In this document: piece by piece, positions 8,809-58,335 of the stretch | Layout: the number at the start of each line of letters is the position of its first letter | Position numbering within the stretch: the first letter of the stretch is position 1 | NCBI GenBank assembly: GCA_964464055.1 | Contig: CAYXEO010000002.1 | Span: 22,145 to 86,144, forward strand | Direction of reading: 5' to 3' | Source of the DNA: an uncultured Methanosarcinales archaeon | GTDB taxonomy: Archaea; Nanobdellota; Nanobdellia; Woesearchaeales; GW2011-AR9 | DNA: 64,000 nt | Notes under the pieces: model-generated | The model's database searches: none | Seen by the model: the letters and a program-made list of their open reading frames with translations, nothing else | What the model was told of the DNA's origin: nothing | Made by a program: the position numbers and the translations under genes

Positions 8809-10695
8809 ATGAAAGATATCAATTTACTAGATGAATCGCTTATTAACAAAATTGCTGCTGGGGAAGTCATTGAACGACCTGCTGCGGTGGTTAAAGAGTT
8901 GATAGAAAATTCTCTCGATGCAGATGCAACAAGAATTTCTGTTGAAATTGTTGATTCTGGTAAAAAACTGGTCAGGATAATTGATAACGGGACCGGGATG
9001 AACGAGGAAAACGCTAAAAAATCTATTCTTCGTCATGCAACCAGTAAAATTCAAACCACTGATGATTTGTTTTCCATTAATACGCTCGGTTTTCGTGGCG
9101 AAGCACTTGCTAGTGTCGCTGCAATCTCCAAATTTTCATTAATTACCCAACAAGAAAACCAATTGGAAGGTTACAATCTTTTAGTTGAAGGTGGGAACAT
9201 TACCAAATCAACCATTTGTTCAGCAGAAAAAGGCACAACCATAGAAATCCGTGACCTTTTTTTTAATACTCCAGCGAGAAAGAAGTTTCTTAAAACTGAT
9301 GCAGTGGAATTAAGACACATTATTGATGTTGTTAGTAGATACGCACTTGCAAACGATTCAGTGGGTTTTAAATTAACTCATCAAGGCAAATCTTTACTAA
9401 ACTCTCCTGCGGTAGATAGCCAACAAGATAACATCTCTTCTGTTTACGGCGTGAAAGTTGCCAAAGAATTGTTGGGAGTAGAGTTCCAAAACGGATCTGG
9501 GACAATTAAAGTTAAAGGGTTCGTTAGCAAACCTTATGATGCTCGGAACGATAAAAATCAACAGAACATTTTTGTTAATGGTAGATGGATTAAAAACGAA
9601 GATTTGAGTCGGGCAATTTATGATGCTTACCACTCTTTACTTTTTGTGGGCAAACATCCTGTGTTTGTTTTACATCTGGAACTAGATTCTAGTAAAATCG
9701 ATGTTAATGTCCACCCAACAAAACAGGAAATCAAATTTGAACAAAAGAAAGAAGTTGAGAATACTGTGTTTAGTGCAGTGAAAGAAACATTACGACAAAA
9801 CGATTTGATCCCAGTGATGAATTTTGAAACTGAAGAACAAACAAGTTTCATTAGTGACGAAGTTGTGGGGAAGAGACCAGTAGAAACTAAGAGTACAATT
9901 CTAACTTTAACTCCTACTCCTAAATATCAGTTTGAACCAAGTGAACAACAGGTTTTGTACGTGGAAAAAGAGAAAACAAACAAAGTCACTACTACTGACC
10001 CTTTTGTAACCACGATACAAAAAGTAACAAATGGGCTACAAGATACACAAGATCCTCAAACTTCACAAGACCCTCAACCCTCTGTTGCACAGGAACAAGC
10101 ACCAACAAATGTTGCTTTACCACCACTAAAAATTCTTGGACAAATCCATAAAACCTTTTTCGTGGCTGAAACACCGGGGGGGATAGTTTTCATTGACCAG
10201 CATGTTGTCCAAGAACGAGTACTTTACGAACGGTTCATGGAACAGTTGTTAAATAGTAATGTGGCAGTACAAAATTTATTACAAGGTGAAGTACTAGAAT
10301 TCGCCCCTTCTGAAAAAGTGAATGTATTAGACAACCTAGAAAATCTCACTCAACTTGGGTTTCAATTAGAAGAGTTTGGCGAGAATGCTTTTGTTCTCAA
10401 AACAATTCCAACTTTGTTCGGCAGATTGCAACCGAAAGAGATATTGTACGAACTACTTAACGACTTTTCTCAAGGTAACGGTAAAAATAAACTTGAAGAA
10501 GTTCAAGAAGAAATTATTACTCGTATGGCTTGTCGTGCTTCTGTGAAAGCTGGAGATACAATGACCATCCCAGAGATTCAAAAGTTACTAGATGAACTTA
10601 AACAAACTAAACTACCTTACACTTGCCCGCACGGAAGAGCAATTTTGATCAAGATGAATGTTGATGAATTGGAGCGGAAGTTTCATCGAAAATAA
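8809..10695 (+). CDS. mutL: DNA mismatch repair protein MutL (GHKL ATPase plus C-terminal endonuclease motif)
   Basis: N-terminal LIENSLDA / DNGTGM / GFRGEAL GHKL motifs. The C-terminal FIDQHVVQERVLYE matches the DQHA(x)2E(x)4E nicking-endonuclease motif. Confidence 0.85.
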   Translation: MKDINLLDESLINKIAAGEVIERPAAVVKELIENSLDADATRISVEIVDSGKKLVRIIDNGTGMNEENAKKSILRHATSKIQTTDDLFSINTLGFRGEALASVAAISKFSLITQQENQLEGYNLLVEGGNITKSTICSAEKGTTIEIRDLFFNTPARKKFLKTDAVELRHIIDVVSRYALANDSVGFKLTHQGKSLLNSPAVDSQQDNISSVYGVKVAKELLGVEFQNGSGTIKVKGFVSKPYDARNDKNQQNIFVNGRWIKNEDLSRAIYDAYHSLLFVGKHPVFVLHLELDSSKIDVNVHPTKQEIKFEQKKEVENTVFSAVKETLRQNDLIPVMNFETEEQTSFISDEVVGKRPVETKSTILTLTPTPKYQFEPSEQQVLYVEKEKTNKVTTTDPFVTTIQKVTNGLQDTQDPQTSQDPQPSVAQEQAPTNVALPPLKILGQIHKTFFVAETPGGIVFIDQHVVQERVLYERFMEQLLNSNVAVQNLLQGEVLEFAPSEKVNVLDNLENLTQLGFQLEEFGENAFVLKTIPTLFGRLQPKEILYELLNDFSQGNGKNKLEEVQEEIITRMACRASVKAGDTMTIPEIQKLLDELKQTKLPYTCPHGRAILIKMNVDELERKFHRK

Positions 10696-19416: not shown

Positions 19417-22125
19417 ATGATAAAAAAAATTGTTGAAAAATTTCAAAAAGTGAATGAAAAGTTAAGTAATTCTCTTGAAGAACTTAAAACTGCTGCTAAC
19501 GCACCATTATCTTCTAAACATGTTTATTCTTTTGAAGAAGGTAACAGAAGCATGAAAACAGTTTTAGGTGGGAAAGGAGCAAACTTGGCTGAAATGAGTA
19601 ATTTAGGTATTCCAGTACCTCCTGGGTTTACGATTACCACTGATGTGTGTGATGTTTACTATCGTAACAACCAAACTTATCCACAAGATGTCCTTGATCA
19701 AATGGAAGATAAACTTGTTGAACTTGAAAATAAAATGGGCAAGAAATTGGGTGATGCAAATGATCCTTTACTAGTCTCTATCAGATCCGGTGCAGCGGTA
19801 TCTTTACCAGGAATGATGGACACAGTGCTGAATTTGGGTCTTAACGATGTTTCCGTAGAAGGTATGGCACAGAAACTTAACAATGAAAGATTTGCTTACG
19901 ACTCTTATCGAAGATTTTTACAGATGTATGGTGATGTAGTATTAAATGTTCCTCATCATGAATTTGAAAAACTTCTTACTCAGATTAAAAAAGATAAAAA
20001 AGTAGAAATTGATAATGATTTAACTGCTAACGATTTGAAAGAATTAGTTAAACAATACAAAACTTTAATCAAAGACACCATCGGGAAAGATTTTCCACAA
20101 GATGCACGTGAACAATTAAAATTGTCTATTAATGCAGTATTTGATTCTTGGAACAATGATCGGGCAATACTTTACCGAAAACTAAATGATATTAAAGGAC
20201 TGAAAGGAACTGCGGTAAATGTTCAAACTATGGTTTTTGGTAACATGGGCGAAACTTCTGGGACTGGTGTTTGTTTTTCACGTGATCCCGCAACAGGAGA
20301 AAACATTTTTTATGGTGAATACTTAATGGACGCACAGGGTGAAGACGTTGTGGCAGGTATTCGAACTCCGAAACAGATTGCAACTTTAGAAGAACAGAAC
20401 CCTGAAGTTTACAAAGAGTTAATTGGGATTAAAGACAATTTAGAAAAACATTTCAAAGATATGCAGGATATGGAGTTTACTATTCAAGAAGGTAAATTGT
20501 ACATTTTACAAACTCGGAGCGGTAAAAGAACTGCTGCCGCTGCTGTCAAATGTGCAGTTGAAATGTTGGACGAAGGTATGATTGACGAAAAAACTGCCTT
20601 AATGCGAGTTGAACCTGACCAATTAAACCAATTATTACATCCACAACTTGATCCGCAAGGAAAAGAGAAAGCTACAGTTTTAACTACTGGTTTACCAGCA
20701 TCACCTGGTGCAGCTGTGGGAGAAATTGTTTTTGATGCAAAGAAAGCTGATGAACTAAATTCTGAAGGAAAAAAAGTTATGTTAGTAAGAACAGAAACAT
20801 CACCGGAAGATTTGATTGGTATGAACGCTGCACAAGGAATTTTAACTTCTCGTGGTGGAATGACTTCACACGCAGCAGTTGTTGCTCGAGGGATGGGGAA
20901 ATGTTGTGTTGCTGGTGCTAATGAAGTTGTGGTTGACGAAATTGCTGGAACTTGTACTATTAACGGCCAAGAATTCAAAGAAGGAGATTTTATTTCTTTA
21001 GATGGGACAACCGGTCAAGTGTTTGAAGGAAAATTAAAAACAACAGATCCAGAGTTGTCTGGTGACTTTGCTAAACTGATGACTTTGGCTGACAAGTATA
21101 GAAAAATGAATGTAAGAACTAACGCCGAAACACCGCGTGATGCAAAAATGGCTATCAAGTTTGGTGCCGAAGGTATCGGTCTTTGTCGTACTGAGCACAT
21201 GTTTTTTGAAGGTGACAGAATAAATATTATGCGAGAAATGATTTTGGCTAAAGATGAAACTGGAAGAAAAGAAGCATTGTCTAGACTTTTACCAATTCAA
21301 CAAAAAGACTTTAAAGAAATTTTTGAAATCATGGGTGAATTACCAGTGACTGTTCGGTTACTAGATCCTCCTTTACACGAATTTCTTCCACAAAGTAAGG
21401 AAGATATCAAAAAGATTGCTAAAAAAGTTGGAGTTACAATTAAAGAACTGGAACAGAAAATTGAATCTTTGCATGAACAGAACCCGATGCTAGGTCATCG
21501 TGGTTGCCGGTTAGCGATTAGTTATCCAGAAATTGCAGTAATGCAAACTGAAGCAATAATTAAAGCTGCGATTGAAATTAAACAGTCCGGTAAAAATTTG
21601 TCCCCAGAAATCATGGTACCTTTAGTTGGTAATGTGAGGGAGTTAAGTTTTGTTAAGAAGCTAATCAAACAAAAAGCGCAAGAACTTATCTCGGAAGCAA
21701 ACATTGATTTGAAATACATGGTCGGAACAATGATTGAAGTGCCACGAGCAGCAGTTACTGCTAACCAAGTTGCTAAAGAAGCAGAATTTTTTTCTTTCGG
21801 TACTAACGATTTGACACAAATGACGATGGGTTTTTCCAGAGATGATGTTGGTAGTTTTGTACCTGAATACATTGGTGAAAACATTTTAGAAAAAGATCCT
21901 TTCGCAGTACTTGATCAGACAGGTGTAGGAATGTTGATGAGAGTAGCAATTAAGAAAGGTAAATCTGTCCGACCAGATATCAAGTTGGGAATCTGTGGTG
22001 AACATGGTGGAGAACCTTCTTCAGTAGAGTTCTGCCACAGAATTGGACTTAATTATGTTAGTTGTAGTCCGTTCCGAGTACCTATTGCGAGATTGGCAGC
22101 AGCTCAAGCAGTACTAAAATATTAA
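19417..22125 (+). CDS. ppdK: pyruvate, phosphate dikinase
   Basis: ATP-grasp N-domain, phospho-His domain (GGMTSHAAVVARGMGKCCV), PEP-utilising TIM barrel (NDLTQMTMGFSRDD), 902 aa. Confidence 0.9.
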   Translation: MIKKIVEKFQKVNEKLSNSLEELKTAANAPLSSKHVYSFEEGNRSMKTVLGGKGANLAEMSNLGIPVPPGFTITTDVCDVYYRNNQTYPQDVLDQMEDKLVELENKMGKKLGDANDPLLVSIRSGAAVSLPGMMDTVLNLGLNDVSVEGMAQKLNNERFAYDSYRRFLQMYGDVVLNVPHHEFEKLLTQIKKDKKVEIDNDLTANDLKELVKQYKTLIKDTIGKDFPQDAREQLKLSINAVFDSWNNDRAILYRKLNDIKGLKGTAVNVQTMVFGNMGETSGTGVCFSRDPATGENIFYGEYLMDAQGEDVVAGIRTPKQIATLEEQNPEVYKELIGIKDNLEKHFKDMQDMEFTIQEGKLYILQTRSGKRTAAAAVKCAVEMLDEGMIDEKTALMRVEPDQLNQLLHPQLDPQGKEKATVLTTGLPASPGAAVGEIVFDAKKADELNSEGKKVMLVRTETSPEDLIGMNAAQGILTSRGGMTSHAAVVARGMGKCCVAGANEVVVDEIAGTCTINGQEFKEGDFISLDGTTGQVFEGKLKTTDPELSGDFAKLMTLADKYRKMNVRTNAETPRDAKMAIKFGAEGIGLCRTEHMFFEGDRINIMREMILAKDETGRKEALSRLLPIQQKDFKEIFEIMGELPVTVRLLDPPLHEFLPQSKEDIKKIAKKVGVTIKELEQKIESLHEQNPMLGHRGCRLAISYPEIAVMQTEAIIKAAIEIKQSGKNLSPEIMVPLVGNVRELSFVKKLIKQKAQELISEANIDLKYMVGTMIEVPRAAVTANQVAKEAEFFSFGTNDLTQMTMGFSRDDVGSFVPEYIGENILEKDPFAVLDQTGVGMLMRVAIKKGKSVRPDIKLGICGEHGGEPSSVEFCHRIGLNYVSCSPFRVPIARLAAAQAVLKY

Positions 22126-22715: not shown

Positions 22716-22970
22716 ACGCTGGAAAAAGAGAAGTTGCTTTAAAAAGATTTTGTTTTGTCATAAGTGAATTGTTGGCAACATAAAGTATTATTTCTTTTGT
22801 CCAAACTTTAATATATCTCTTAAAAAAACATAAAAAGTTAGATTGAAAAAGAGATATGTGCTTTAATTTTCAATAAAACATCCCTATCTAACTATTTATG
22901 TTCGTTTTGTACTCTTTTTGGAAACAAAACCTTTTTAAAAGAGCGAACTTCTTTTTATTCTAGTTGCATG

Positions 22971-23097
22971 GCGATGTAGCTTAACCTGGTCATAGCGCCA
23001 CGCTCATAAACATGAGCTATGAGACATTTTCGTCGATGACAAAAATTGGCTTATTGGGTTACGTGGAGGTTGGGGGCTCAAATCCCCCCATCGCCAT
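22971..23097 (+). tRNA. tRNA-Met/Ile2 (anticodon CAT) with a ~52-nt intron after position 37
   Basis: Acceptor GGCGATG/CATCGCC with discriminator A. Anticodon stem CCACG/CGTGG with loop CTCATAA. T-arm GGGGG-CTCAAAT-CCCCC. Intron ~23010-23061 pairs ATGAG with the loop CTCAT (relaxed BHB). Confidence 0.8.
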
Positions 23098-23187
23098 ACT
23101 TTTTCACGTCAATGTAGTACCGAAGTATAAATTCAAAAACAAATTTTATATTTGTCTGTCACTTATGATTTTCGTGAATAACTATTG

Positions 23188-23271
23188 CCAACGTGGCACA
23201 ATCTGGTACTGCGCAAGCCTGGAAAGCTTGTTTCCTTTTGGATATCCCGGTTCAAATCCGGGCGTTGGCGC
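23188..23271 (+). tRNA. tRNA-Ser (anticodon GGA), long variable arm, no intron
   Basis: Acceptor GCCAACG/CGTTGGC with discriminator G. Anticodon stem CAAGC/GCTTG with loop CTGGAAA. Variable arm TCC-TTTT-GGA. T-arm CCCGG-TTCAAAT-CCGGG. Confidence 0.85.
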
Positions 23272-23334
23272 TCTTTTTTTCTTAATTTTTAATCAGAGGG
23301 TTGATAAGGGCAGACTGCCCTTATGTGAGGAGCC

Positions 23335-23356
23335 CGGGCGTTGGCGCTTTTTTTCA
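23335..23356 (+). repeat. duplicate of the tRNA-Ser 3' end (ccgggcgttggcgct plus T-run), 61 nt downstream of the gene
   Basis: An exact 15-nt copy of 23259-23273 followed by a T7 run. It is preceded by the hairpin GGGCAGACTGCCC. Confidence 0.7.
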
Positions 23357-23454
23357 TTTAATATTTAATTAGAAAATATTTGGTGTTATTACTTTTTTCC
23401 TCCTCCTTATAAACAACACTTTTATATATCATAAAAGTTTCTTTTTATTTGTAA

Positions 23455-26400
23455 ATGTATTATAAAAAGAAAGGTGAATTAGTTAGTTTAGTAATTATTA
23501 CGTTTTTAATTTTGGTAAGTGGTATTTTGTTCTGGCAACATGATAGTATTAGTGGTGCAATAACTATAATAAATCCCTCATTGGAATTAGAACCACAAAC
23601 CGTTAATGGCACTTTTGGAACAGGGATTGGTTTAGATGCTGAAGAATTAGTTACTGAAATTAATCATGTTGGCCTTGCTTTGGTTGAAGATGATGGTGAA
23701 GATGATTTTAGTACACAAAATATTGGCGATGGGCTTTTTACCGGAGTGATTAATTTGTCTAATGCAGATGCACAATTTAATGGTGTTTTTGCAAGCGATA
23801 ATGCCGGTAATGCAATAACTTTTGCCGATTTAAATAATGATGGTTTTGCAGATTTTGTAATTGGTGCTACCGGTGCAACCGCTAATGGTAATTCTGCAGC
23901 AGGAAAAGTTTATGTGGTTTATGGCCCGGCAAACGAAGAATTAAATTTGTCTGACGCAGATATTGTTTTGAACGGTGTTGCTGAAGATGTTCAAGCGGGG
24001 AATGCTTTATCTTCAGGAGATTTTAATAATGATGGTATTGATGATTTGTTAATTGGTGCGGAGAGTGCCAATACCGCAAACAAGGGAGAGTCCTATATTA
24101 TTTTTGGTTCATTAAGTTTGGCACAAGAAATTAATTTGTCTGATGCAAATGTGACTTTTGAAGGGATAGATCACCAAGATAGATCTGGGTCTGCCGTGTC
24201 TTCAGGAGACATTAATTGTGATGGTATCGAAGACATTTTAATAGGTGCACCTTATGCAACGGGTGGTGCATCTTATTCAGGTGAAATGTATGTTGTCTAT
24301 GGGTCTTCAATTTTGTCTGGGACAATTGATTTGGTAGATGCAAATGTGACTTTTTTTTCAGATTCTTCATCTGGTTTTTTAACAAATAGAAGAGGAATTA
24401 CAACTGGAGACATGAATAATGACGGGTTTGATGACATTTATGTTGTTGGAACGAATAATAATGGTGATGGGTATTTTATTTATAATAATTGTTCTTTAAG
24501 TTCTTCTATCAATTTAACTGTTGATGTTAATTTTACCATGGGTGGAGTTGGTGAACGAGCAATAGTTATGGGTGATATAAATAATGATGGGTATTTGGAT
24601 TTGATTGGTGGAGATTATGAATTTAATAATGGTACGGTCAATATTTTTTTAGGTTCTGCTGATTTAAGCGGTTCAAAATATTTATCGCAAGACAATATTA
24701 CCATCGAAGGATTAAATTCAGAACAGTTTGGTTATGATGTTGCAGTAGGAGATTATAATGGTGATGATATTATTGATTTATTCGTAAGTGCAAATTATGA
24801 AGATACTAATGGTAACATTGATTCGGGAGCATTACACATTTTTTATGGACCTATTGTTAATGGTACAAACATTTATTCTAATCAGTCAAATGTTACTTTT
24901 AATGGTGTTTCTGCAAGTGATTATGCAGGGGCACTAATTGTTAATGATTTTAACAACGATAATTCCGCAGACATTTTAATTGGTGCTTATTGTGCAGACC
25001 CAAATGGGAATTCGCAAGCAGGGGAAGTTTATTTAGTAAATGGATTGATCACATGTAATTATATCAATTTCAACACTACACTTAATCAAGACATCTCTGC
25101 TAATGGTGAATGTTTCATTATTAATGCATCCAACATTTACCTTGACGGAAACGGGCATATTATAACCGGAAATGGGTCAGGTGTGGGGATCAATTTAACC
25201 AATGTGGAAAATGTTACTATTCGGAATTTTAATGTACTAAATTTTAGTGAGGGGATTTATTTTGACAATTCTGCTAATAACAATAATTTCACAGATGGTG
25301 TTGTGGGCGATAATGCTAATTTAGATATTAACATTACTAACAATGGTGGTTCAAACAACATTTTTGCTAATGTTACTTTTGATAAAACAAGTACTTCAAT
25401 TGGAACTAGTAGTTCTATTTTTGTCAAATGGTATACTGATGTTTACATTAATGATACTTCTGGAAACCCATTGGTTTCAGTTAATGTTACTGGTTATAAT
25501 TTAACTAATGATTTGGAACAAAGTCAATCAACAGATGTAAATGGGGAGGCAAGATTATCTTTGATAGAATATTATCAAGATAATTCTGGTAAAACTTATC
25601 ACACAAATCATACTATTAACGTAAGTAAATCTCTTTATAGTCAAAGTTCACAACAAATAAATTTAACAGAAACTAATAATACGCAATTGACTTACACTTT
25701 AGAAGTGGGTTGCGGCGAGATTGGCGAAGACATTACTTTTTCTCCAACAACATTTAATATTAACGGTTCTTGTTTTACTATTGGTGCGGATAACCTTGTA
25801 ATTGATGGTGCTGGATTAACTATACTTGGTAACACTTCCGGAGCAGGTATTAACATAACCGGGTACAACAATATTACATTTACTAACTTTGATATTCAAA
25901 ATTTTAGTAATGGTATTTATCTTGGTGCAACAAACAATACTTATTTTTATAATTCTGAAATCGGTGCGTCCCATATTAAAGACGTTTTTGTAAATGATAA
26001 CGCAGGCGTCAATAATACTTTTGTTAATGTCACTTTTGACAGAGATAAAACACAGATTGGAACAGACAGTGACATTTTTGTTAAATGGTATGTTGACATT
26101 TTAGTGATGAATAATGGTTTTATAGTTTCTGATGCAAATGTTTCTGCATACAATTCTTCCACAGAATTAGAAGTTAGTCAACTGACAAATGCAACTGGAC
26201 AAATTCAATTCACTTTATTAGATTTCACTGAAACTAGTACCGGGAAAATTCACTCCACCCCCCATAATATAACTGTAAATAAAACTGGCTATAATTTACA
26301 AAGTTGGGAAGTTAATTTGACACAAACAAATAGCACCTTTCATCAATTTGATATTTCTGGTGATTTATCTTGTGGCACAATAAGTTCAAGTATCCTTTTA

Positions 26401-29400
26401 CAAAACCAAACCATTTATCAAAATGGTACTTGCTTTACTATTGGGGCAGATAATATTATTATTCACGGAGGCGGCACCACTTTAATTGGTAACGGAACAG
26501 GAAATGGTTTTCATTTTGCTGAGAGAACTAATGTAACTTTAACAAATTTTAATATTGTCAATTTTTCAAACGGTCTTTATTCTAATGGATCTGACGATTG
26601 TACGTTTAGTTCTTTAACTTTTAACAATAATAGCGTAGCAATGAATTGGTACAATTCTTCAAGTAATAATTTTGAGAATGGAACTATAACAAATAGTACA
26701 GAATTCGATTTAACTTTAGCTGTTGGAACAGACAATTATTTCACTAATATTACTTTTAATAACACTCATTTAAATATTTCAGAAGACGGTCATTTTACCA
26801 CTAGGTGGTTTTTGGATTTTGAAGTAACAGATGTTTCAGACGCAGTTTTAGAAGATGTGAAAATAACTTTGTTTAATGCTGAAAATGAAACTGTTGATGT
26901 GGTGACATCTTCTGCCACAGGAATTGCACAAATGATAATTTCTGAATTTTTCATTGATGAATTAGGTTACATTTATTTGCCGCCTTACCATTTGACAATC
27001 TCAAAAGCTGGTTATATCCCTGAAACTTACTCTCCTCTTGACATTTATGAAGAAAACCAAGAATTAGATTTTTCTTTAACAGAAATTTCTTGTGGGACAA
27101 CTTTAACAACAGACATTGTTTTAACGGAAAATCTTCAATCTTCTGGTACTTGTTTTGTTATTGGTGCGGATAATTTAACAATTGATGGTGCTGGTTATTC
27201 AATTAATGGTACTCTTTCAAATGACGGTATTCGTTCTATTGATCACACTGGTTTAACAATTACAAATTTGACTATAACGAATATGGGGCAAGGAATTAAT
27301 TTGGTCGGAACTAATACGAGTACTGTAAGAGATGTTAATTGTTCGGGTAATGATTATGGGTTAATATTAATTAATTCGTCAGATAATGCTATTTATGATT
27401 CTTTATTTTCAAACAATAATCATAATGATATTTATGTTAATAGTGAATTAGAAACTAACAATTTCTTAATTAATGATTCTTTTGCTCCTGCTGAAATAAA
27501 TGTCACCGGTAATGCAAATATTTTTCAAAAATGGTATTTAGAAGTAAATGTTGTTTTTGGAGATGAAGATTACAATTTACCTTTAGCAAATGTAACTGCT
27601 TATTTTAATTCAACAGGGTTGACAGATGAAAGTAGATTAACTAATACTAATGGCTTAGTCAATTTGGAAATAACAGAAACAAAAATAAATTCTTCGACCA
27701 CAACCTATTTTCCACCACATAATTTAACTGTTTTTTATAATCATTCTGCTATTGGGCAAGTGTCAAATTCAACAGTAATCAATATCTCAGAAACTAATAA
27801 TACTGAAGTAGAATTATGGCTAGATATAACTTGTACGCCTCCAGCAGACAATTTAGAAATAACTTCTAATACTAATCTTTGCCCAGGTGTTTGGGAACTT
27901 GTGGATGGTGGTAGTTACGGGGTAATTAAGATCGCATCTACCGCTAATGTAACCTGTATAGATACAGTTTTAGTTGGTGATGGTTCAGGGCGTGCATTTG
28001 TGGTTAGAAATGCAGAGGATGTCCAGATAAATGGGTGTACCTTACAAGATTATTTAATAGGTGTATCTCCAGATAATATGGAAATTAATGGGTTAGTGGT
28101 TAATGATATTAGTATGTCAAATGTGGATATTGGTATTTCAACAAGTAATTTAGGTGAATCATTTACTCTTTCAAATTTTGCAATTGAATTAACTGAGAGT
28201 GGTTATGGTGTTGGTTCTCAGTTAGATACTGATTCAAATCATTTAATTGAAAATGGTACGTTCTCTGGCGGTGAAAAAGGTATCTTTTTTAGTGGTGGAA
28301 CGTGGAACAACGCACGAATACATAATGTTACTTTTATAGGCCAGGGGAAAACTGGATACGGAATTTACAAGGGAAAAGGTTCAAATAACAATATTACTAA
28401 TTGTACATTCCAAGATTATCGATATGGTGTTTATTGGTATTCCGGAAGTAATAACAACATTTATTACAACACTTTTGAAGATGTTCGAGAATATAATGTT
28501 TGGTCAGTAAGTTCTGGTAATGTATTTAACACTTCTGTAAATATAACGTATGTGAACGAGTCAGGGAATTTAACAAATGCAACTGTTGCATGGGGGAATT
28601 CGTGGGATGACTATTGTGAGTTAGATTTAGAAGATACTAATAACGATGATTATGCAGATAGTGGAGATGATTACCCTTATAGTCCATCAACCACTGATAA
28701 AGTTTTAGGTTATGTGACTGATTGGGGTCCTAAGGTTTTATCTTGTCCGTCCGAAACTCCCGAAGAAGCAAGAGAAGTAAGAGGGAGTAGCGGTTCTAAA
28801 GCAGAAACCACAGAAACCACTGAAGAAATACCAACAGAAACACCAGCGAAACAACCAACACTTAAAAAAGAAACACAAGTAGGACTAACTCCTGACGAAA
28901 TTTATTTGGCAGAAGATGTAAAAAAACATCTTAAAACAGAAGCAACTACTACAACTACTGAACAAGGAACAACCCTTTTAGTAACTTTAGAAAATACTGG
29001 TACAAAATCTATGCAACTGTTCCCAGAAATTTTCCAAGAAATTGACGACCCCTATTTTATTGTTACCAAGAAGACCTTGGGACATGAGAACTCCTTTTTT
29101 AGTAAACTTTCGCACCTTTCTTATTCCGAAAACTCTGTCGCTGGAAGATTATTGGAAGCAACCATAACTAACCCTGAACAAATCCTTCTTGCACCAGGGG
29201 AAACTGTCGAGAAAACGTTACAAATCAACGAAGGTCTGGCAATCCCTAGACAATTAAAAATCCAATTTACAACTTTCGGTGAAACCGTTTATGAGAAAGA
29301 AATTGAAATTGAACAGAAAGCACTTTCAGGTACTGCGGTTGATTTGGATGTTGAAAATAATTTGTTAGACATTTATGCAGTTATTGTCCCTGCCCAAATT

Positions 29401-29784
29401 TCACAACAGTTCGAAGAATATTATGCTAAACAAACAAATAAATTAACAGGTGCGGCAGTTTATGACAAGTTACAAAATCGTAATGAATACAAACTAGAGT
29501 TAAGTTTAGTAAAAATCGTCCCAGATGAAAATAAACCGTCTCAGAACAATTTACCCGGTAAATATCAATTAATTCAAAAAATTGCTAAATCCTTTTCACA
29601 AGAGAAACCTAATTTTAATGATTTATATGGGCCTTACTTTATTAAAAAAGATCAAAGTTTGATTTTTGCTCAGCAACTGAAATATAATCCAGCGACTTAC
29701 AATAGTGATTATTTAATTAAAACTAAAATTTTCTTGGATGATACCCCAATAGTAGAGAATGAATTCGAGATTGAGATGAAGTAG
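23455..29784 (+). CDS. giant extracellular protein (2109 aa): FG-GAP/integrin-alpha-like repeats plus right-handed parallel beta-helix repeats, heavily N-glycosylated
   Basis: N-terminal signal anchor. Seven or more FG-GAP-like DxNxDGxxD loops (DFNNDGIDDLLIGA, GDINCDGIEDILIGAP, GDMNNDGFDDIYVVG...). Repeated IxGxGxTIxG...NxxNITFTNFxI beta-helix units with dense NxT sequons. Confidence 0.8.
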   Translation: MYYKKKGELVSLVIITFLILVSGILFWQHDSISGAITIINPSLELEPQTVNGTFGTGIGLDAEELVTEINHVGLALVEDDGEDDFSTQNIGDGLFTGVINLSNADAQFNGVFASDNAGNAITFADLNNDGFADFVIGATGATANGNSAAGKVYVVYGPANEELNLSDADIVLNGVAEDVQAGNALSSGDFNNDGIDDLLIGAESANTANKGESYIIFGSLSLAQEINLSDANVTFEGIDHQDRSGSAVSSGDINCDGIEDILIGAPYATGGASYSGEMYVVYGSSILSGTIDLVDANVTFFSDSSSGFLTNRRGITTGDMNNDGFDDIYVVGTNNNGDGYFIYNNCSLSSSINLTVDVNFTMGGVGERAIVMGDINNDGYLDLIGGDYEFNNGTVNIFLGSADLSGSKYLSQDNITIEGLNSEQFGYDVAVGDYNGDDIIDLFVSANYEDTNGNIDSGALHIFYGPIVNGTNIYSNQSNVTFNGVSASDYAGALIVNDFNNDNSADILIGAYCADPNGNSQAGEVYLVNGLITCNYINFNTTLNQDISANGECFIINASNIYLDGNGHIITGNGSGVGINLTNVENVTIRNFNVLNFSEGIYFDNSANNNNFTDGVVGDNANLDINITNNGGSNNIFANVTFDKTSTSIGTSSSIFVKWYTDVYINDTSGNPLVSVNVTGYNLTNDLEQSQSTDVNGEARLSLIEYYQDNSGKTYHTNHTINVSKSLYSQSSQQINLTETNNTQLTYTLEVGCGEIGEDITFSPTTFNINGSCFTIGADNLVIDGAGLTILGNTSGAGINITGYNNITFTNFDIQNFSNGIYLGATNNTYFYNSEIGASHIKDVFVNDNAGVNNTFVNVTFDRDKTQIGTDSDIFVKWYVDILVMNNGFIVSDANVSAYNSSTELEVSQLTNATGQIQFTLLDFTETSTGKIHSTPHNITVNKTGYNLQSWEVNLTQTNSTFHQFDISGDLSCGTISSSILLQNQTIYQNGTCFTIGADNIIIHGGGTTLIGNGTGNGFHFAERTNVTLTNFNIVNFSNGLYSNGSDDCTFSSLTFNNNSVAMNWYNSSSNNFENGTITNSTEFDLTLAVGTDNYFTNITFNNTHLNISEDGHFTTRWFLDFEVTDVSDAVLEDVKITLFNAENETVDVVTSSATGIAQMIISEFFIDELGYIYLPPYHLTISKAGYIPETYSPLDIYEENQELDFSLTEISCGTTLTTDIVLTENLQSSGTCFVIGADNLTIDGAGYSINGTLSNDGIRSIDHTGLTITNLTITNMGQGINLVGTNTSTVRDVNCSGNDYGLILINSSDNAIYDSLFSNNNHNDIYVNSELETNNFLINDSFAPAEINVTGNANIFQKWYLEVNVVFGDEDYNLPLANVTAYFNSTGLTDESRLTNTNGLVNLEITETKINSSTTTYFPPHNLTVFYNHSAIGQVSNSTVINISETNNTEVELWLDITCTPPADNLEITSNTNLCPGVWELVDGGSYGVIKIASTANVTCIDTVLVGDGSGRAFVVRNAEDVQINGCTLQDYLIGVSPDNMEINGLVVNDISMSNVDIGISTSNLGESFTLSNFAIELTESGYGVGSQLDTDSNHLIENGTFSGGEKGIFFSGGTWNNARIHNVTFIGQGKTGYGIYKGKGSNNNITNCTFQDYRYGVYWYSGSNNNIYYNTFEDVREYNVWSVSSGNVFNTSVNITYVNESGNLTNATVAWGNSWDDYCELDLEDTNNDDYADSGDDYPYSPSTTDKVLGYVTDWGPKVLSCPSETPEEAREVRGSSGSKAETTETTEEIPTETPAKQPTLKKETQVGLTPDEIYLAEDVKKHLKTEATTTTTEQGTTLLVTLENTGTKSMQLFPEIFQEIDDPYFIVTKKTLGHENSFFSKLSHLSYSENSVAGRLLEATITNPEQILLAPGETVEKTLQINEGLAIPRQLKIQFTTFGETVYEKEIEIEQKALSGTAVDLDVENNLLDIYAVIVPAQISQQFEEYYAKQTNKLTGAAVYDKLQNRNEYKLELSLVKIVPDENKPSQNNLPGKYQLIQKIAKSFSQEKPNFNDLYGPYFIKKDQSLIFAQQLKYNPATYNSDYLIKTKIFLDDTPIVENEFEIEMK

Positions 29785-35131: not shown

Positions 35132-36643
35132 ATGGTAAAAACTAATGTAGATGGAAATAAATTAAGGAAACTTAATGAAATGAAAGAGTTGGGTATTAAC
35201 CCGTATCCGTACACTTATAATCAAACGCATCATGCGAAAAATGTTAATGATAAATATACTACTTTGAAATCTGAAGAACATACTGAAGACAAAGTTTCTG
35301 TTGCTGGTAGAGTGATGTTAAAAAGAGTTATGGGGAAAGCTAGTTTTTTCCATATCCAAGATCAAACCGGAAGAATTCAACTCTATTTAACTAAAGACAA
35401 TTTAGGCGCAGATAATTACAAAATTCTTGCTAAAAAAGTTGACATTGGAGATATCATTGGTGTTGAAGGTAAGATATTCAAAACTCGGAAAGGAGAAGTT
35501 ACTGTTGAATGTTCTACTGCACAAGTTCTTTGTAAATCATTACAAATGTTACCAGAGAAATTTCATGGTTTGAAAGATATCGAATTACGTTACAGACAAA
35601 GGTACTTAGACCTAATCATGAACCAAGATTCCAAAATAGTTTTTGAGAAACGAAGTAAAATGATTAAAGTTATCCGGGACTATTTTGACGAAAAAAAGTT
35701 TATGGAAGTTGAAACACCTACTTTACAAACTATTTATGGTGGTGCTAATGCTCGTCCGTTTGAAACACATATTAATGCATGGGACATGAAAATGTATTTA
35801 TCAATTTCTCCAGAACTATATTTGAAACGGCTTTTGGTGGGTGGATTTGAGAAAGTGTTTACTATTTGTAAAAACTTCCGTAATGAGGATGTAGATTTGT
35901 CTCACAATCCAGAATTTACCATGTTGGAGATTTATGAAGCTTACGCAGATTATCGGACCATGATGGGATACATTGAGCAAGTGTATGAAAAGTCTTGTTT
36001 AGCAATTAACGGCACTACAAAAGTTAAGAAAATGTATCATGGTGAAGAAGTAGAACTAGATTTTAAAGCTCCTTGGAAAAGAATGACTATGCTTGAAGCA
36101 ATTAAGAAGTATGGTAATACGGATGCTTCTATGATGTCTGAAGAAGCTATCAAAGCTACTGTTGACAATTTGAACCTTGAATATGAAGGAACTTTTACTT
36201 GGGGATTAGGTGTGCAATTACTTTTTGAAGAATTAGTAGAAGAGAAATTAATTCAACCAATCCATATTATTGATCATCCTAAAGAGTCTACACCTTTATG
36301 TAAAGCACATCCTGAAGATGAGCGGTTAATTGAACGGTTTGAATCATTCTGTATAGGGATGGAATTATGTAATGCTTATTCAGAACTTAACGACCCTGCT
36401 TTACAACGGGAATTATTAGAAAAACAAGCCGTTGAATTACGTGCTGGTGATGGTGAAGCACATCCAATGGATGAAGATTTTATTAAAGCGATGGAATATG
36501 GTATGCCTCCTGCTGGTGGGCTTGGGTTTGGTATTGACCGGATGATAATTGTATTGACAGGAGTAGATTCTATCAGAGATGTGATCTTGTTCCCGACCAT
36601 GAAACCTGTTAAGGAAGACAAGAAAGAAGATAAGAAGGAATAG
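35132..36643 (+). CDS. lysS: lysyl-tRNA synthetase, class II
   Basis: N-terminal OB anticodon-binding domain, motif 2 (FRNED), motif 3 (GGLGFGIDRMIIVLTGVDSIRDVILFP), 503 aa. Confidence 0.9.
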   Translation: MVKTNVDGNKLRKLNEMKELGINPYPYTYNQTHHAKNVNDKYTTLKSEEHTEDKVSVAGRVMLKRVMGKASFFHIQDQTGRIQLYLTKDNLGADNYKILAKKVDIGDIIGVEGKIFKTRKGEVTVECSTAQVLCKSLQMLPEKFHGLKDIELRYRQRYLDLIMNQDSKIVFEKRSKMIKVIRDYFDEKKFMEVETPTLQTIYGGANARPFETHINAWDMKMYLSISPELYLKRLLVGGFEKVFTICKNFRNEDVDLSHNPEFTMLEIYEAYADYRTMMGYIEQVYEKSCLAINGTTKVKKMYHGEEVELDFKAPWKRMTMLEAIKKYGNTDASMMSEEAIKATVDNLNLEYEGTFTWGLGVQLLFEELVEEKLIQPIHIIDHPKESTPLCKAHPEDERLIERFESFCIGMELCNAYSELNDPALQRELLEKQAVELRAGDGEAHPMDEDFIKAMEYGMPPAGGLGFGIDRMIIVLTGVDSIRDVILFPTMKPVKEDKKEDKKE

Positions 36644-36948: not shown

Positions 36949-36971
36949 ATAAAAAATACGGGCCTGCGAAG
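36949..36971 (-). repeat. duplicate of the tRNA-Arg 3' end plus trailer (ataaaaaatacgggcctgcgaag), 48 nt downstream of the gene
   Basis: An exact 23-nt copy of 37020-37042, which is the complement of the tRNA 3' terminus CTTCGCAGGCCCG plus TATTTTTTAT. Confidence 0.7.
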
Positions 36972-37029
36972 CTTTTCACTAAACTTTTACAAAAAGTTTA
37001 ATCAAAAGAAGTTAAATAAATAAAAAATA

Positions 37030-37143
37030 CGGGCCTGCGAAGATTTGAACTCCGGATCTACAGCTATCTTCAGAGTGATAAAAAATCATTTCTTTTTTCG
37101 CTCTTAGGAGGCTGTCGCCCTATCCAGGCTAGGCTACAGGCCC
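37030..37143 (-). tRNA. tRNA-Arg (anticodon CCT) with a ~39-nt intron after position 37
   Basis: Minus strand. Acceptor GGGCCTG/CAGGCCC with discriminator G. Anticodon stem ACAGC/GCTGT with loop CTCCTAA. T-arm CGGAG-TTCAAAT-CTTCG (one G.U). Intron ~37065-37103. Confidence 0.8.
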
Positions 37144-37457: not shown

Positions 37458-37579
37458 CGTGGGCGTGCCGGAGTGGTCAAACGGGATAGATGATAATTAA
37501 TCAGTCCAAGCTTAGGCCAGATATTCTGGAAGATACCTATTGACTTAGTGTCTACGCAGGTTCGAACCCTGCCGTCCAC
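37458..37579 (+). tRNA. intron-containing tRNA of unresolved identity (best reading: anticodon GAT, Ile; the long extra arm is unexplained)
   Basis: Acceptor GTGGGCG/CGTCCAC (one G.U) with discriminator A. D-loop GAGTGGTCAAA. T-arm GCAGG-TTCGAAC-CCTGC. It is 122 nt, implying a ~35-45-nt insertion. The best anticodon stem is GATAG/CTATT with loop ATGATA(C). The internal hairpin CCAGA-TAT-TCTGG probably lies in the intron. Confidence 0.55.
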
Positions 37580-37641
37580 ATATATTCTTTATTTTCACAT
37601 ACAACATTAATTTTATAAACCTTCTAAATATACTTCTGGCC

Positions 37642-58303: not shown

Positions 58304-58335
58304 TTTATTTATTTATTTATTTATTTATTTATTTT
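58303..58335. repeat. (ATTT)8 microsatellite
   Basis: atttatttatttatttatttatttatttatttttt, directly after the ATPase stop. Confidence 0.85.

Follow-up and report, generated by a model that had tools for sequence, protein, structure and literature searches.

What leaves the 3' end of a tRNA gene repeated a few tens of nucleotides behind the gene itself? This question is raised by the tRNA-Ser(GGA) locus of a low-GC archaeal contig, of which a stretch of 64,000 nucleotides (hereafter the window) was analyzed. The window belongs to Woesearchaeota (DPANN). Homologues of its ZPR1 gene are named Woesearchaeota or Nanoarchaeota, the same sequence is present in JGI marine metagenomes, and the tRNAs of the host carry many introns.

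The 3' end of tRNA-Ser(GGA) is repeated downstream

tRNA-Ser(GGA) is intact, lacks an encoded CCA and lies on the forward strand at 23187-23270 according to Rfam (56.2 bits, full-length model match) or 23187-23271 according to ARAGORN. Its end belongs to a 15-mer, CCGGGCGTTGGCGCT, which is followed by a T-run and was found at exactly two sites in the 64-kb window, 23258-23272 and 23334-23348. No further site was detected in the window with up to two mismatches, nor a third copy of the repeat with up to three mismatches on both strands; dinucleotide shuffles gave an expectation of 0 chance matches, even with two mismatches allowed. The sequence-only reading had stated that the last 15 nt of the tRNA and the T-run recur exactly. 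The exact repeat was confirmed, but only 13 of its nucleotides belong to the tRNA (positions 61-73, i.e. the 3' strand of the T stem, the 3' acceptor strand and the discriminator G), the remaining two being trailer. Moreover, the trailers differ by small indels (GCGCT-C-T7-C behind the first copy, GCGC-T7-C behind the second), and the second copy, placed earlier at 23335-23356, was one base off.

When two small indels are allowed, the similarity extends to about 40 nt (85% ungapped). The first copy (23258-23297, forward strand) then comprises positions 61-73 (23258-23270), CTC, a T7 run (23274-23280) and an AT-rich trailer, and the second (23334-23373, forward strand) comprises positions 61-73 (23334-23346), a T-run (23348-23354) and again an AT-rich trailer. 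The first copy thus yields the full-length tRNA recognized by Rfam and ARAGORN, followed by T7. The spacer between the copies is 61 nt long if counted from the exact 15-mer and 36 nt if counted from the extended repeat, and it contains a perfect 10-bp inverted repeat (23304-23313 and 23315-23324), forming the hairpin ATAAGGGCAG A CTGCCCTTAT (23304-23324), which is also designated by GAGGGTTGATAAGGGCAGACTGCCC.

The same structure was present in four independently assembled contigs of the species from other samples, indicating that the repeat is not an assembly artefact. In short-read contigs of the species and its relatives (L003, L006, L007 and L282), contig ends fall within tRNA-Met or within the T arm of tRNA-Ser, where the duplicated tRNA ends probably break assemblies.

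A parallel repeat at tRNA-Arg(CCT)

The same architecture, already proposed from the sequence, was verified at tRNA-Arg(CCT) on the reverse strand (37030-37143; intron of about 40 nt; Rfam 48.8 bits, also called by ARAGORN). Here a 23-nt repeat, CTTCGCAGGCCCGTATTTTTTAT, occupies 37020-37042 and 36949-36971 with 23/23 nt identical, and it also starts at position 61. The second copy, consisting of positions 61-73 and TATTTTTTAT, lies 71 nt downstream of the first, start to start. Between them, the 48-nt spacer (36972-37019, reverse strand) holds an imperfect hairpin with 17-nt arms (36972-37008), as seen from the inverted repeat and from folding (z = -3.5; 0/200 shuffles folded as well). The first copies have U60 in both tRNAs, and the base preceding the second copy is C at tRNA-Ser and G at tRNA-Arg.

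No downstream copy of the 3' end was found at the other two tRNAs of the window. One of these is tRNA-Met(CAT) (22970-23096, forward strand; intron of about 52-54 nt; Rfam 54.3 bits, ARAGORN with introns). The other (37459-37580, forward strand) contains at least two introns; its ARAGORN call is Ile(GAT), and with Rfam it went undetected at the gathering score. Its homologue in L283 is called Leu(UAG) once a T-loop intron is removed. The T arm of this Leu-like tRNA was seen in three states: plain in the window, with a 59/60 intron in L283, and plain with a downstream copy in L284.

Among relatives, the nearest LysRS homologues were only 76% identical, and their LysRS does not have tRNA-Arg beside it. 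The window gene concerned (35132-36643, forward strand) encodes a class II aminoacyl-tRNA synthetase (Pfam tRNA-synt_2, D/K/N family), all named homologues of which are lysine-tRNA ligases.

Short downstream copies recur in related loci

A metagenome scan using the T loop and 3' end of this tRNA-Ser as query returned 66 loci, mostly from DPANN archaea. With up to two mismatches, CCGGGCGTTGGCG gave 17 downstream copies in 14 distinct tRNA-Ser loci of the 66 (L235 and L260, which duplicate L210 and L215, were left out), all starting 60-251 nt from the start of the tRNA repeat. Up to about one quarter of related tRNA-Ser loci thus carry a short downstream copy. In L245, one copy lies at 1516 nt and the interval encloses an MFS transporter gene. 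Insert sizes are bimodal, with many of 47-170 nt, one of 1.5 kb and none between. The sequence-only reading had suggested the scar of an element almost wholly deleted. This was only partly borne out: the size distribution would not be expected from random internal deletion of 10-kb elements and suggests a separate class of event.

The same pattern was found behind tRNA-Glu (L219), tRNA-Met (L221) and the Leu-like tRNA (L284), as well as behind tRNA-Arg in the window. Among 92 tRNAs surveyed with ARAGORN in DPANN loci totalling 0.98 Mb, upstream copies were seen only beside tandem tRNA genes; the tRNA-Ser scan added one upstream match, in the nested arrangement of L213. Across loci the repeat has a constant left edge, within tRNA positions 58-61, and a variable right edge, which lies anywhere between the discriminator base (0) and 27 nt beyond the tRNA. 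An att identity block would be expected to show this pattern, since it has to restore the tRNA.

Repeat length ranges from 12 to about 41 nt between loci, with no fixed size. This bears on a further reading, in which the repeat is a target-site duplication left at the tRNA 3' end when a casposon-like or transposase-driven element inserted there. Casposon target duplications at tRNA 3' ends measure about 15 nt, which is also the size of the exact repeat in the window. However, besides the variable length, no terminal inverted repeats were noticed and the inserts are devoid of any gene or ORF. We consider this origin extremely improbable.

Three loci (L220, L246 and L256) have two copies in series, resembling tandem accretion. 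Spacers are unrelated in sequence and length between loci and lineages, and an antisense T-loop/T-stem motif was present in 10 of about 23 of them. L219 presents a related pair: its spacers behind tRNA-Glu and tRNA-Ser are homologous (score 64 versus 24 +/- 4.5 for shuffles), and both interrupt a copy of the T loop after TTCA. In the L253/L257 pair, the flank common to both follows the second copy, and L257 carries a different insert of 0.5 kb.

These comparisons also bear on a possible present function. The copy could be an RNA or DNA signal, such as a back-up terminator, a decoy for 3' processing, or a small RNA with its own promoter made of the hairpin and the tRNA 3' end. Both cases in the window keep an exact copy, a hairpin and a T-run, and the structure is fixed in four population samples. 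Against a signal of this kind, the spacers share neither sequence nor length, and many second copies have decayed (L214, L216, L232 and L234), as have the third copies of L220, L246 and L256. Most tRNAs lack the feature altogether, including two of the four in the window, and the fold of the tRNA-Ser spacer is unremarkable (z of -0.96 to -1.56). A functional signal is improbable in our view.

Some related tRNA-Ser genes showed other rearrangements. At L213:2873-3340, an insert of about 200 nt separates the variable arm of a tRNA-Ser (acceptor GCCAACG...CGTTGGC) from its T arm. Bounded by a perfect 14-nt inverted repeat, GAAAATGAGGAAAA / TTTTCCTCATTTTC, this insert includes another, complete tRNA-Ser (acceptor GCCAGTG...CACTGGC) that has a T-run of its own. 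Either a tRNA is nested here in the intron of another tRNA, or the two halves of a split tRNA lie on either side of a second gene. At L282:1-150 (reverse strand; ZPR1 identity 87%), tRNA-Ser is preceded, at a distance of 68 nt, by a 17-nt copy of its own 5' end, TCATGCCAACGTGGCAC. In L246 and L256, two hairpin units built from GCCAACGTCGCA and its complement precede tRNA-Ser.

Split and nested arrangements such as that of L213 are what a split-tRNA reading would draw on, in which the hairpin and second copy of the window would be the 3' piece of a trans-spliced tRNA, joined to a 5' fragment of another tRNA-Ser. We know of no precedent for a 13-nt tRNA piece split at 60/61. In addition, the repeat includes part of the neighboring gene's trailer, a sign of local duplication, and the window contains no partner with a complementary leader or trailer. 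Shared 3' halves of split tRNAs are known in Nanoarchaeum and Caldivirga (see also PMC3218864). For the window, such an arrangement appears very improbable. Altogether, the terminator or decoy, split-tRNA and casposon readings are weakly supported.

Integrases at the same tRNA-Ser

Tyrosine integrase genes (PF00589, E 1e-14 to 1e-18) were found directly behind the same tRNA-Ser in L222, L255, L241 and L249. They encode proteins of about 415 aa, lie on the same strand as the tRNA and start about 40-100 nt behind it. A homologue search with contig look-ups added L266-L272 (L241 being grouped with L270, and L249 with L266-269); the integrase of L272 stands behind a related tRNA-Ser. This family leads elements on the 10-kb scale with primase-helicase, terminase and antitoxin genes. 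In L272 a complete 9.6-kb element is bounded by a 16-nt repeat, AATCCTGGGCCTGGCG, that corresponds to tRNA positions 58-73. Its second copy is followed by the native T-run, and its register is the same as that of the short repeats. The attR of the elements in L241, L249, L266 and L270 was not reached within 4-11 kb of sequence.

L255 is the closest relative found, with 87% amino acid identity in ZPR1 and 97.6% nucleotide identity in tRNA-Ser. It shares OapC/OapB and the order ZPR1, tRNA-Met, tRNA-Ser with the window, and an integrase stands where the window has the spacer and the second copy. The earlier proposal of an integrase att register at a recurrent integration site is thus borne out by these relatives. 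In the window itself, tblastn with four clade integrases detected no integrase or remnant (best E 0.05).

The relatives' integrases, the register of the L272 element and the flank of the L253/L257 pair lead us to favor an att-type origin as the best single explanation. Accordingly, the window repeat would be an attL/attR-type footprint of integrase-type recombination at a hot-spot, with no present function, a reading which we hold with about even confidence. The first copy and its T7 run would have arrived with the incoming DNA and preserve a complete, terminated tRNA. The second would represent the original 3' end, pushed downstream together with its T-run and native flank; we infer which copy is ancestral from another lineage. 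The most likely agent would be the Woesearchaeota tyrosine integrase family, with a core site at tRNA-Ser positions 58-73, and an empty allele would have the tRNA followed directly by TTTTTTTCATTTAATATTTAATTAG. No such empty site was found for the window species. The same kind of event would have occurred independently at tRNA-Arg. Between the repeats there are now only trailer and an intron-like hairpin, with no gene. The absence of a gene leads us to read the locus as a non-autonomous scar, similar to a miniature cis-mobilizable element.

A simple att scar does not account for everything. Besides the absence of an integrase from the window, the window spacers showed no homology to the integrase-proximal arms of the L255, L266, L270 and L272 elements. 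The 5'-end duplicates upstream of tRNA-Ser in L282, L246 and L256 also count against this reading. Viral contigs scanned with both repeat cores gave only chance matches in GC-rich phage DNA, and the spacer hairpin matched nothing in them.

ORFs for LAGLIDADG homing endonucleases were noticed beside, and slightly overlapping, tRNA genes at L266:8942-9676, between tRNA-Met and tRNA-Ser, and at L284:6728-7429, next to the Leu-like tRNA with the 3'-end copy. They could be a source of breaks in tRNA genes.

The tRNA-Ser spacer resembles a tRNA intron

The spacer segment containing the hairpin (23290-23328, forward strand) matched the 44-nt anticodon-loop intron of a tRNA-Gly(UCC) in L022 at 36 of 39 nt (92%), with one gap (blastn-short, E 2e-7) and one compensatory stem change, A-T to G-C. 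The L022 gene lies at the syntenic place next to ZPR1, and ARAGORN folds it into a 72-nt cloverleaf once both inferred introns are removed.

The L022 gene itself (9720-9899, reverse strand) has introns of 44 nt at 37/38 and 62 nt at 59/60. In this two-intron form it was not called by ARAGORN, and Rfam also missed it, even at E 0.1. The apparent 7-nt repeat TCGAAAG at the borders of its T-loop intron is the central helix of the splice motif, since TTCGAA is a palindrome.

This match, which an att scar would not lead one to expect, raises the possibility of a bypassed or nascent T-loop intron. The spacer would be, or would once have been, a bulge-helix-bulge (BHB) type intron at 59/60, and the second copy would be the former 3' exon, still followed by its terminator. 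The layout would read E1-E2-T-I-E2-T (E1 and E2, exons; T, trailer with terminator; I, intron). Insertion of a duplicate 3' exon and trailer at the 5' splice site would have freed the tRNA from its need for splicing. This duplicate could come from the cDNA of a spliced transcript, from RNA-templated repair or from an intronless att site. Intron loss would be completed by recombination between the repeats; conversely, an intron would arise if the first copy were lost.

Genuine T-arm introns do occur in the clade, at 59/60 in the tRNA-Gly of L022 and the Leu-like tRNA of L283 and at 53/54 in a tRNA-Ser of L233, and spacer lengths match intron lengths. The homologous spacers of L219, both interrupting a T-loop copy, are also in line with an intron. 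However, the intron homologous to the tRNA-Ser spacer sits in another tRNA and at another position, and the T arm is uninterrupted in the closest relatives L255 and L282, up to the end of the sequence. No homology to a verified intron was found for the tRNA-Arg spacer, and the similarity of the L284 spacer to the T-loop intron of L283 was not significant (137/1000 shuffles).

The splice motif, with its 3-nt bulges and 4-bp central helix, predicts by its geometry that at a 59/60 intron a 4-mer complementary to the T-loop UUCA precedes the T-stem strand of the 3' exon by 3 nt. Such a 4-mer was found at exactly this distance at tRNA-Arg in the window (GUGAA-AAG-CUUCG), in L213 and in L215, and at 4-5 nt at tRNA-Ser in the window (UGAG, 4 nt) and in L236, against 4 matches in 552 other offsets. 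This register test was devised after the data had been seen and is suggestive only. At tRNA-Arg, GUGAA-AAG directly precedes the second copy, placing UGAA, the 3-nt bulge AAG and the T-stem strand in the correct register, but the inner helix measures only 2-3 bp (manual inspection). A scar would need no such correctly placed BHB half-site, nor does the att model predict the antisense motif in 10 of about 23 spacers. At tRNA-Ser, UGAG and GAGC (23323-23333) lie just before the second copy, but the bulge is 4 nt, manual inspection revealed no inner helix, and no complete BHB forms. More generally, no H-helix signal was detected in 17 of the 23 second copies.

Folding also speaks against splicing at the window tRNA-Ser. 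Left unconstrained, the sequence folds with the first copy (-56.7 kcal/mol, versus -45.0 kcal/mol when the first copy is blocked), and this copy gives a full-length tRNA followed by T7, so splicing is not required. The T7 run would, moreover, lie inside the intron. On the other side, the mechanism of archaeal intron transposition is stated as unknown (PMC4090602). On balance, we regard the T-loop intron as a live alternative, though less likely than an att-type footprint.

The two readings overlap: an att site that carries an intron, or lands beside one, would give the same picture, and a combination of att site and intron has been proposed for one locus (PMC3293823). An intron at 59/60 would split the integrase core site 58-73. 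It is possible, if rather doubtful, that the short repeat-bounded inserts in general represent stages by which archaeal tRNAs acquire or lose T-loop introns, in a process that would be either linked to the integrases or opposed to them.

No evidence in the window for an island delimited by the repeat

The repeat adjoins a gene for a giant FG-GAP / beta-helix surface protein of 2109 aa (23455-29784, forward strand; Pfam), and it had been considered possible that a cargo island begins here. The window did not sustain this view. Its GC content at the gene is 0.31-0.35, like that of the flanks, with no compositional break, and no distal repeat bounding the gene was found in the window. As the window contains neither an integrase homologue, nor an element body, nor a third copy, the giant gene as cargo is not supported. 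In 36 relatives, the giant gene, L11 and DHS were not in conserved synteny with ZPR1 on the tRNA side, so that this comparison is uninformative.

An element integrated at tRNA-Ser in L266, with its integrase, carries a 605-aa FG-GAP protein (L266:15238-17055). The giant FG-GAP gene of the window adjoins the same tRNA as this element, but has no bounding repeat.

Elsewhere in the window, a pyruvate phosphate dikinase (PPDK) gene (19417-22125, forward strand) lies between ZPR1 and OapC/OapB. In the 16 relatives with a locatable OapC/OapB, including L255, OapC/OapB lies within about 0.4-3 kb of ZPR1 with no PPDK match. PPDK therefore appears to be an insertion specific to this lineage. At 58304-58334, serial 12-nt BLAST matches drew attention to a short AT-rich stretch of 4-nt period.

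Discussion

The arrangement in the window recalls several known systems. pNOB8-type archaeal elements likewise combine a reconstituted tRNA with a downstream tRNA-fragment repeat, next to an intact integrase (PMC3293823), and archaeal tRNA fragments left by integration have been described (PMC9897764). T-loop cores are also known in bacteria: at tRNA att sites of this class, such as that of mycobacteriophage Ms6, the repeat runs from the T loop or its end past the end of the tRNA, as it does here (PMC1762012). In contrast to pNOB8 and Ms6, no integrase or element body lies between the repeats of the window, where 36-61 nt are left, partly intron-like, and in the clade short inserts far outnumber long ones.

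Segments flanked by att sites and devoid of an integrase are also found among CIMEs (cis-mobilizable elements), remnants that have lost their recombination genes. Known CIMEs are gene-bearing and hundreds of bp to kb long, whereas the segments described here measure 47-170 nt. The serial repeats of L220, L246 and L256 resemble tandem accretion at tRNA/tmRNA sites, for instance in the Dehalococcoides ssrA islands (PMC3146451).

The intron side has its own parallels. In the intron transposition of Thermoproteales (Fujishima 2010, as cited in PMC4090602), as in the window, a sequence is homologous to the intron of another tRNA at another position. The insertion point also fits the 59/60 geometry of archaeal non-canonical BHB introns, with half a BHB at tRNA-Arg. 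The difference is that the window tRNA needs no splicing to be complete, since the putative intron comes after a duplicate 3' exon and a terminator. The model in which mobile-element integration disrupts tRNA genes (Sugahara 2012, PMC3293823; Randau and Soll 2008) links integrase att sites, tRNA fragments and intron gain. It differs in concerning one locus, a 1.8-kb element and a 5' fragment, whereas many short 3' duplicates in another phylum are described here.

Three further analogies were considered and dropped: a retroviral PBS (no CCA complement), a T-box (the repeat matches the tRNA end itself rather than its complement) and an integron attC (no core-site match).

Partial tRNA copies are routinely read as prophage borders, but here they mark something smaller and much more frequent. 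Up to one quarter of tRNA-Ser genes in the clade, and some other tRNAs, bear an appendix of 50-170 nt that ends in their own last 13 bases, and the break falls exactly where local integrases cut and T-loop introns sit. If these appendices are only scars, they are a warning for annotation: they break assemblies, create false tRNA fragments and mark no islands. If they are intron intermediates, they would provide testable material on how archaeal tRNA introns move and on whether introns protect tRNA genes from integration. Were the intron reading true, it would offer a DNA-level mechanism, visible in genome sequence, for the so far unexplained intron transposition of archaea.
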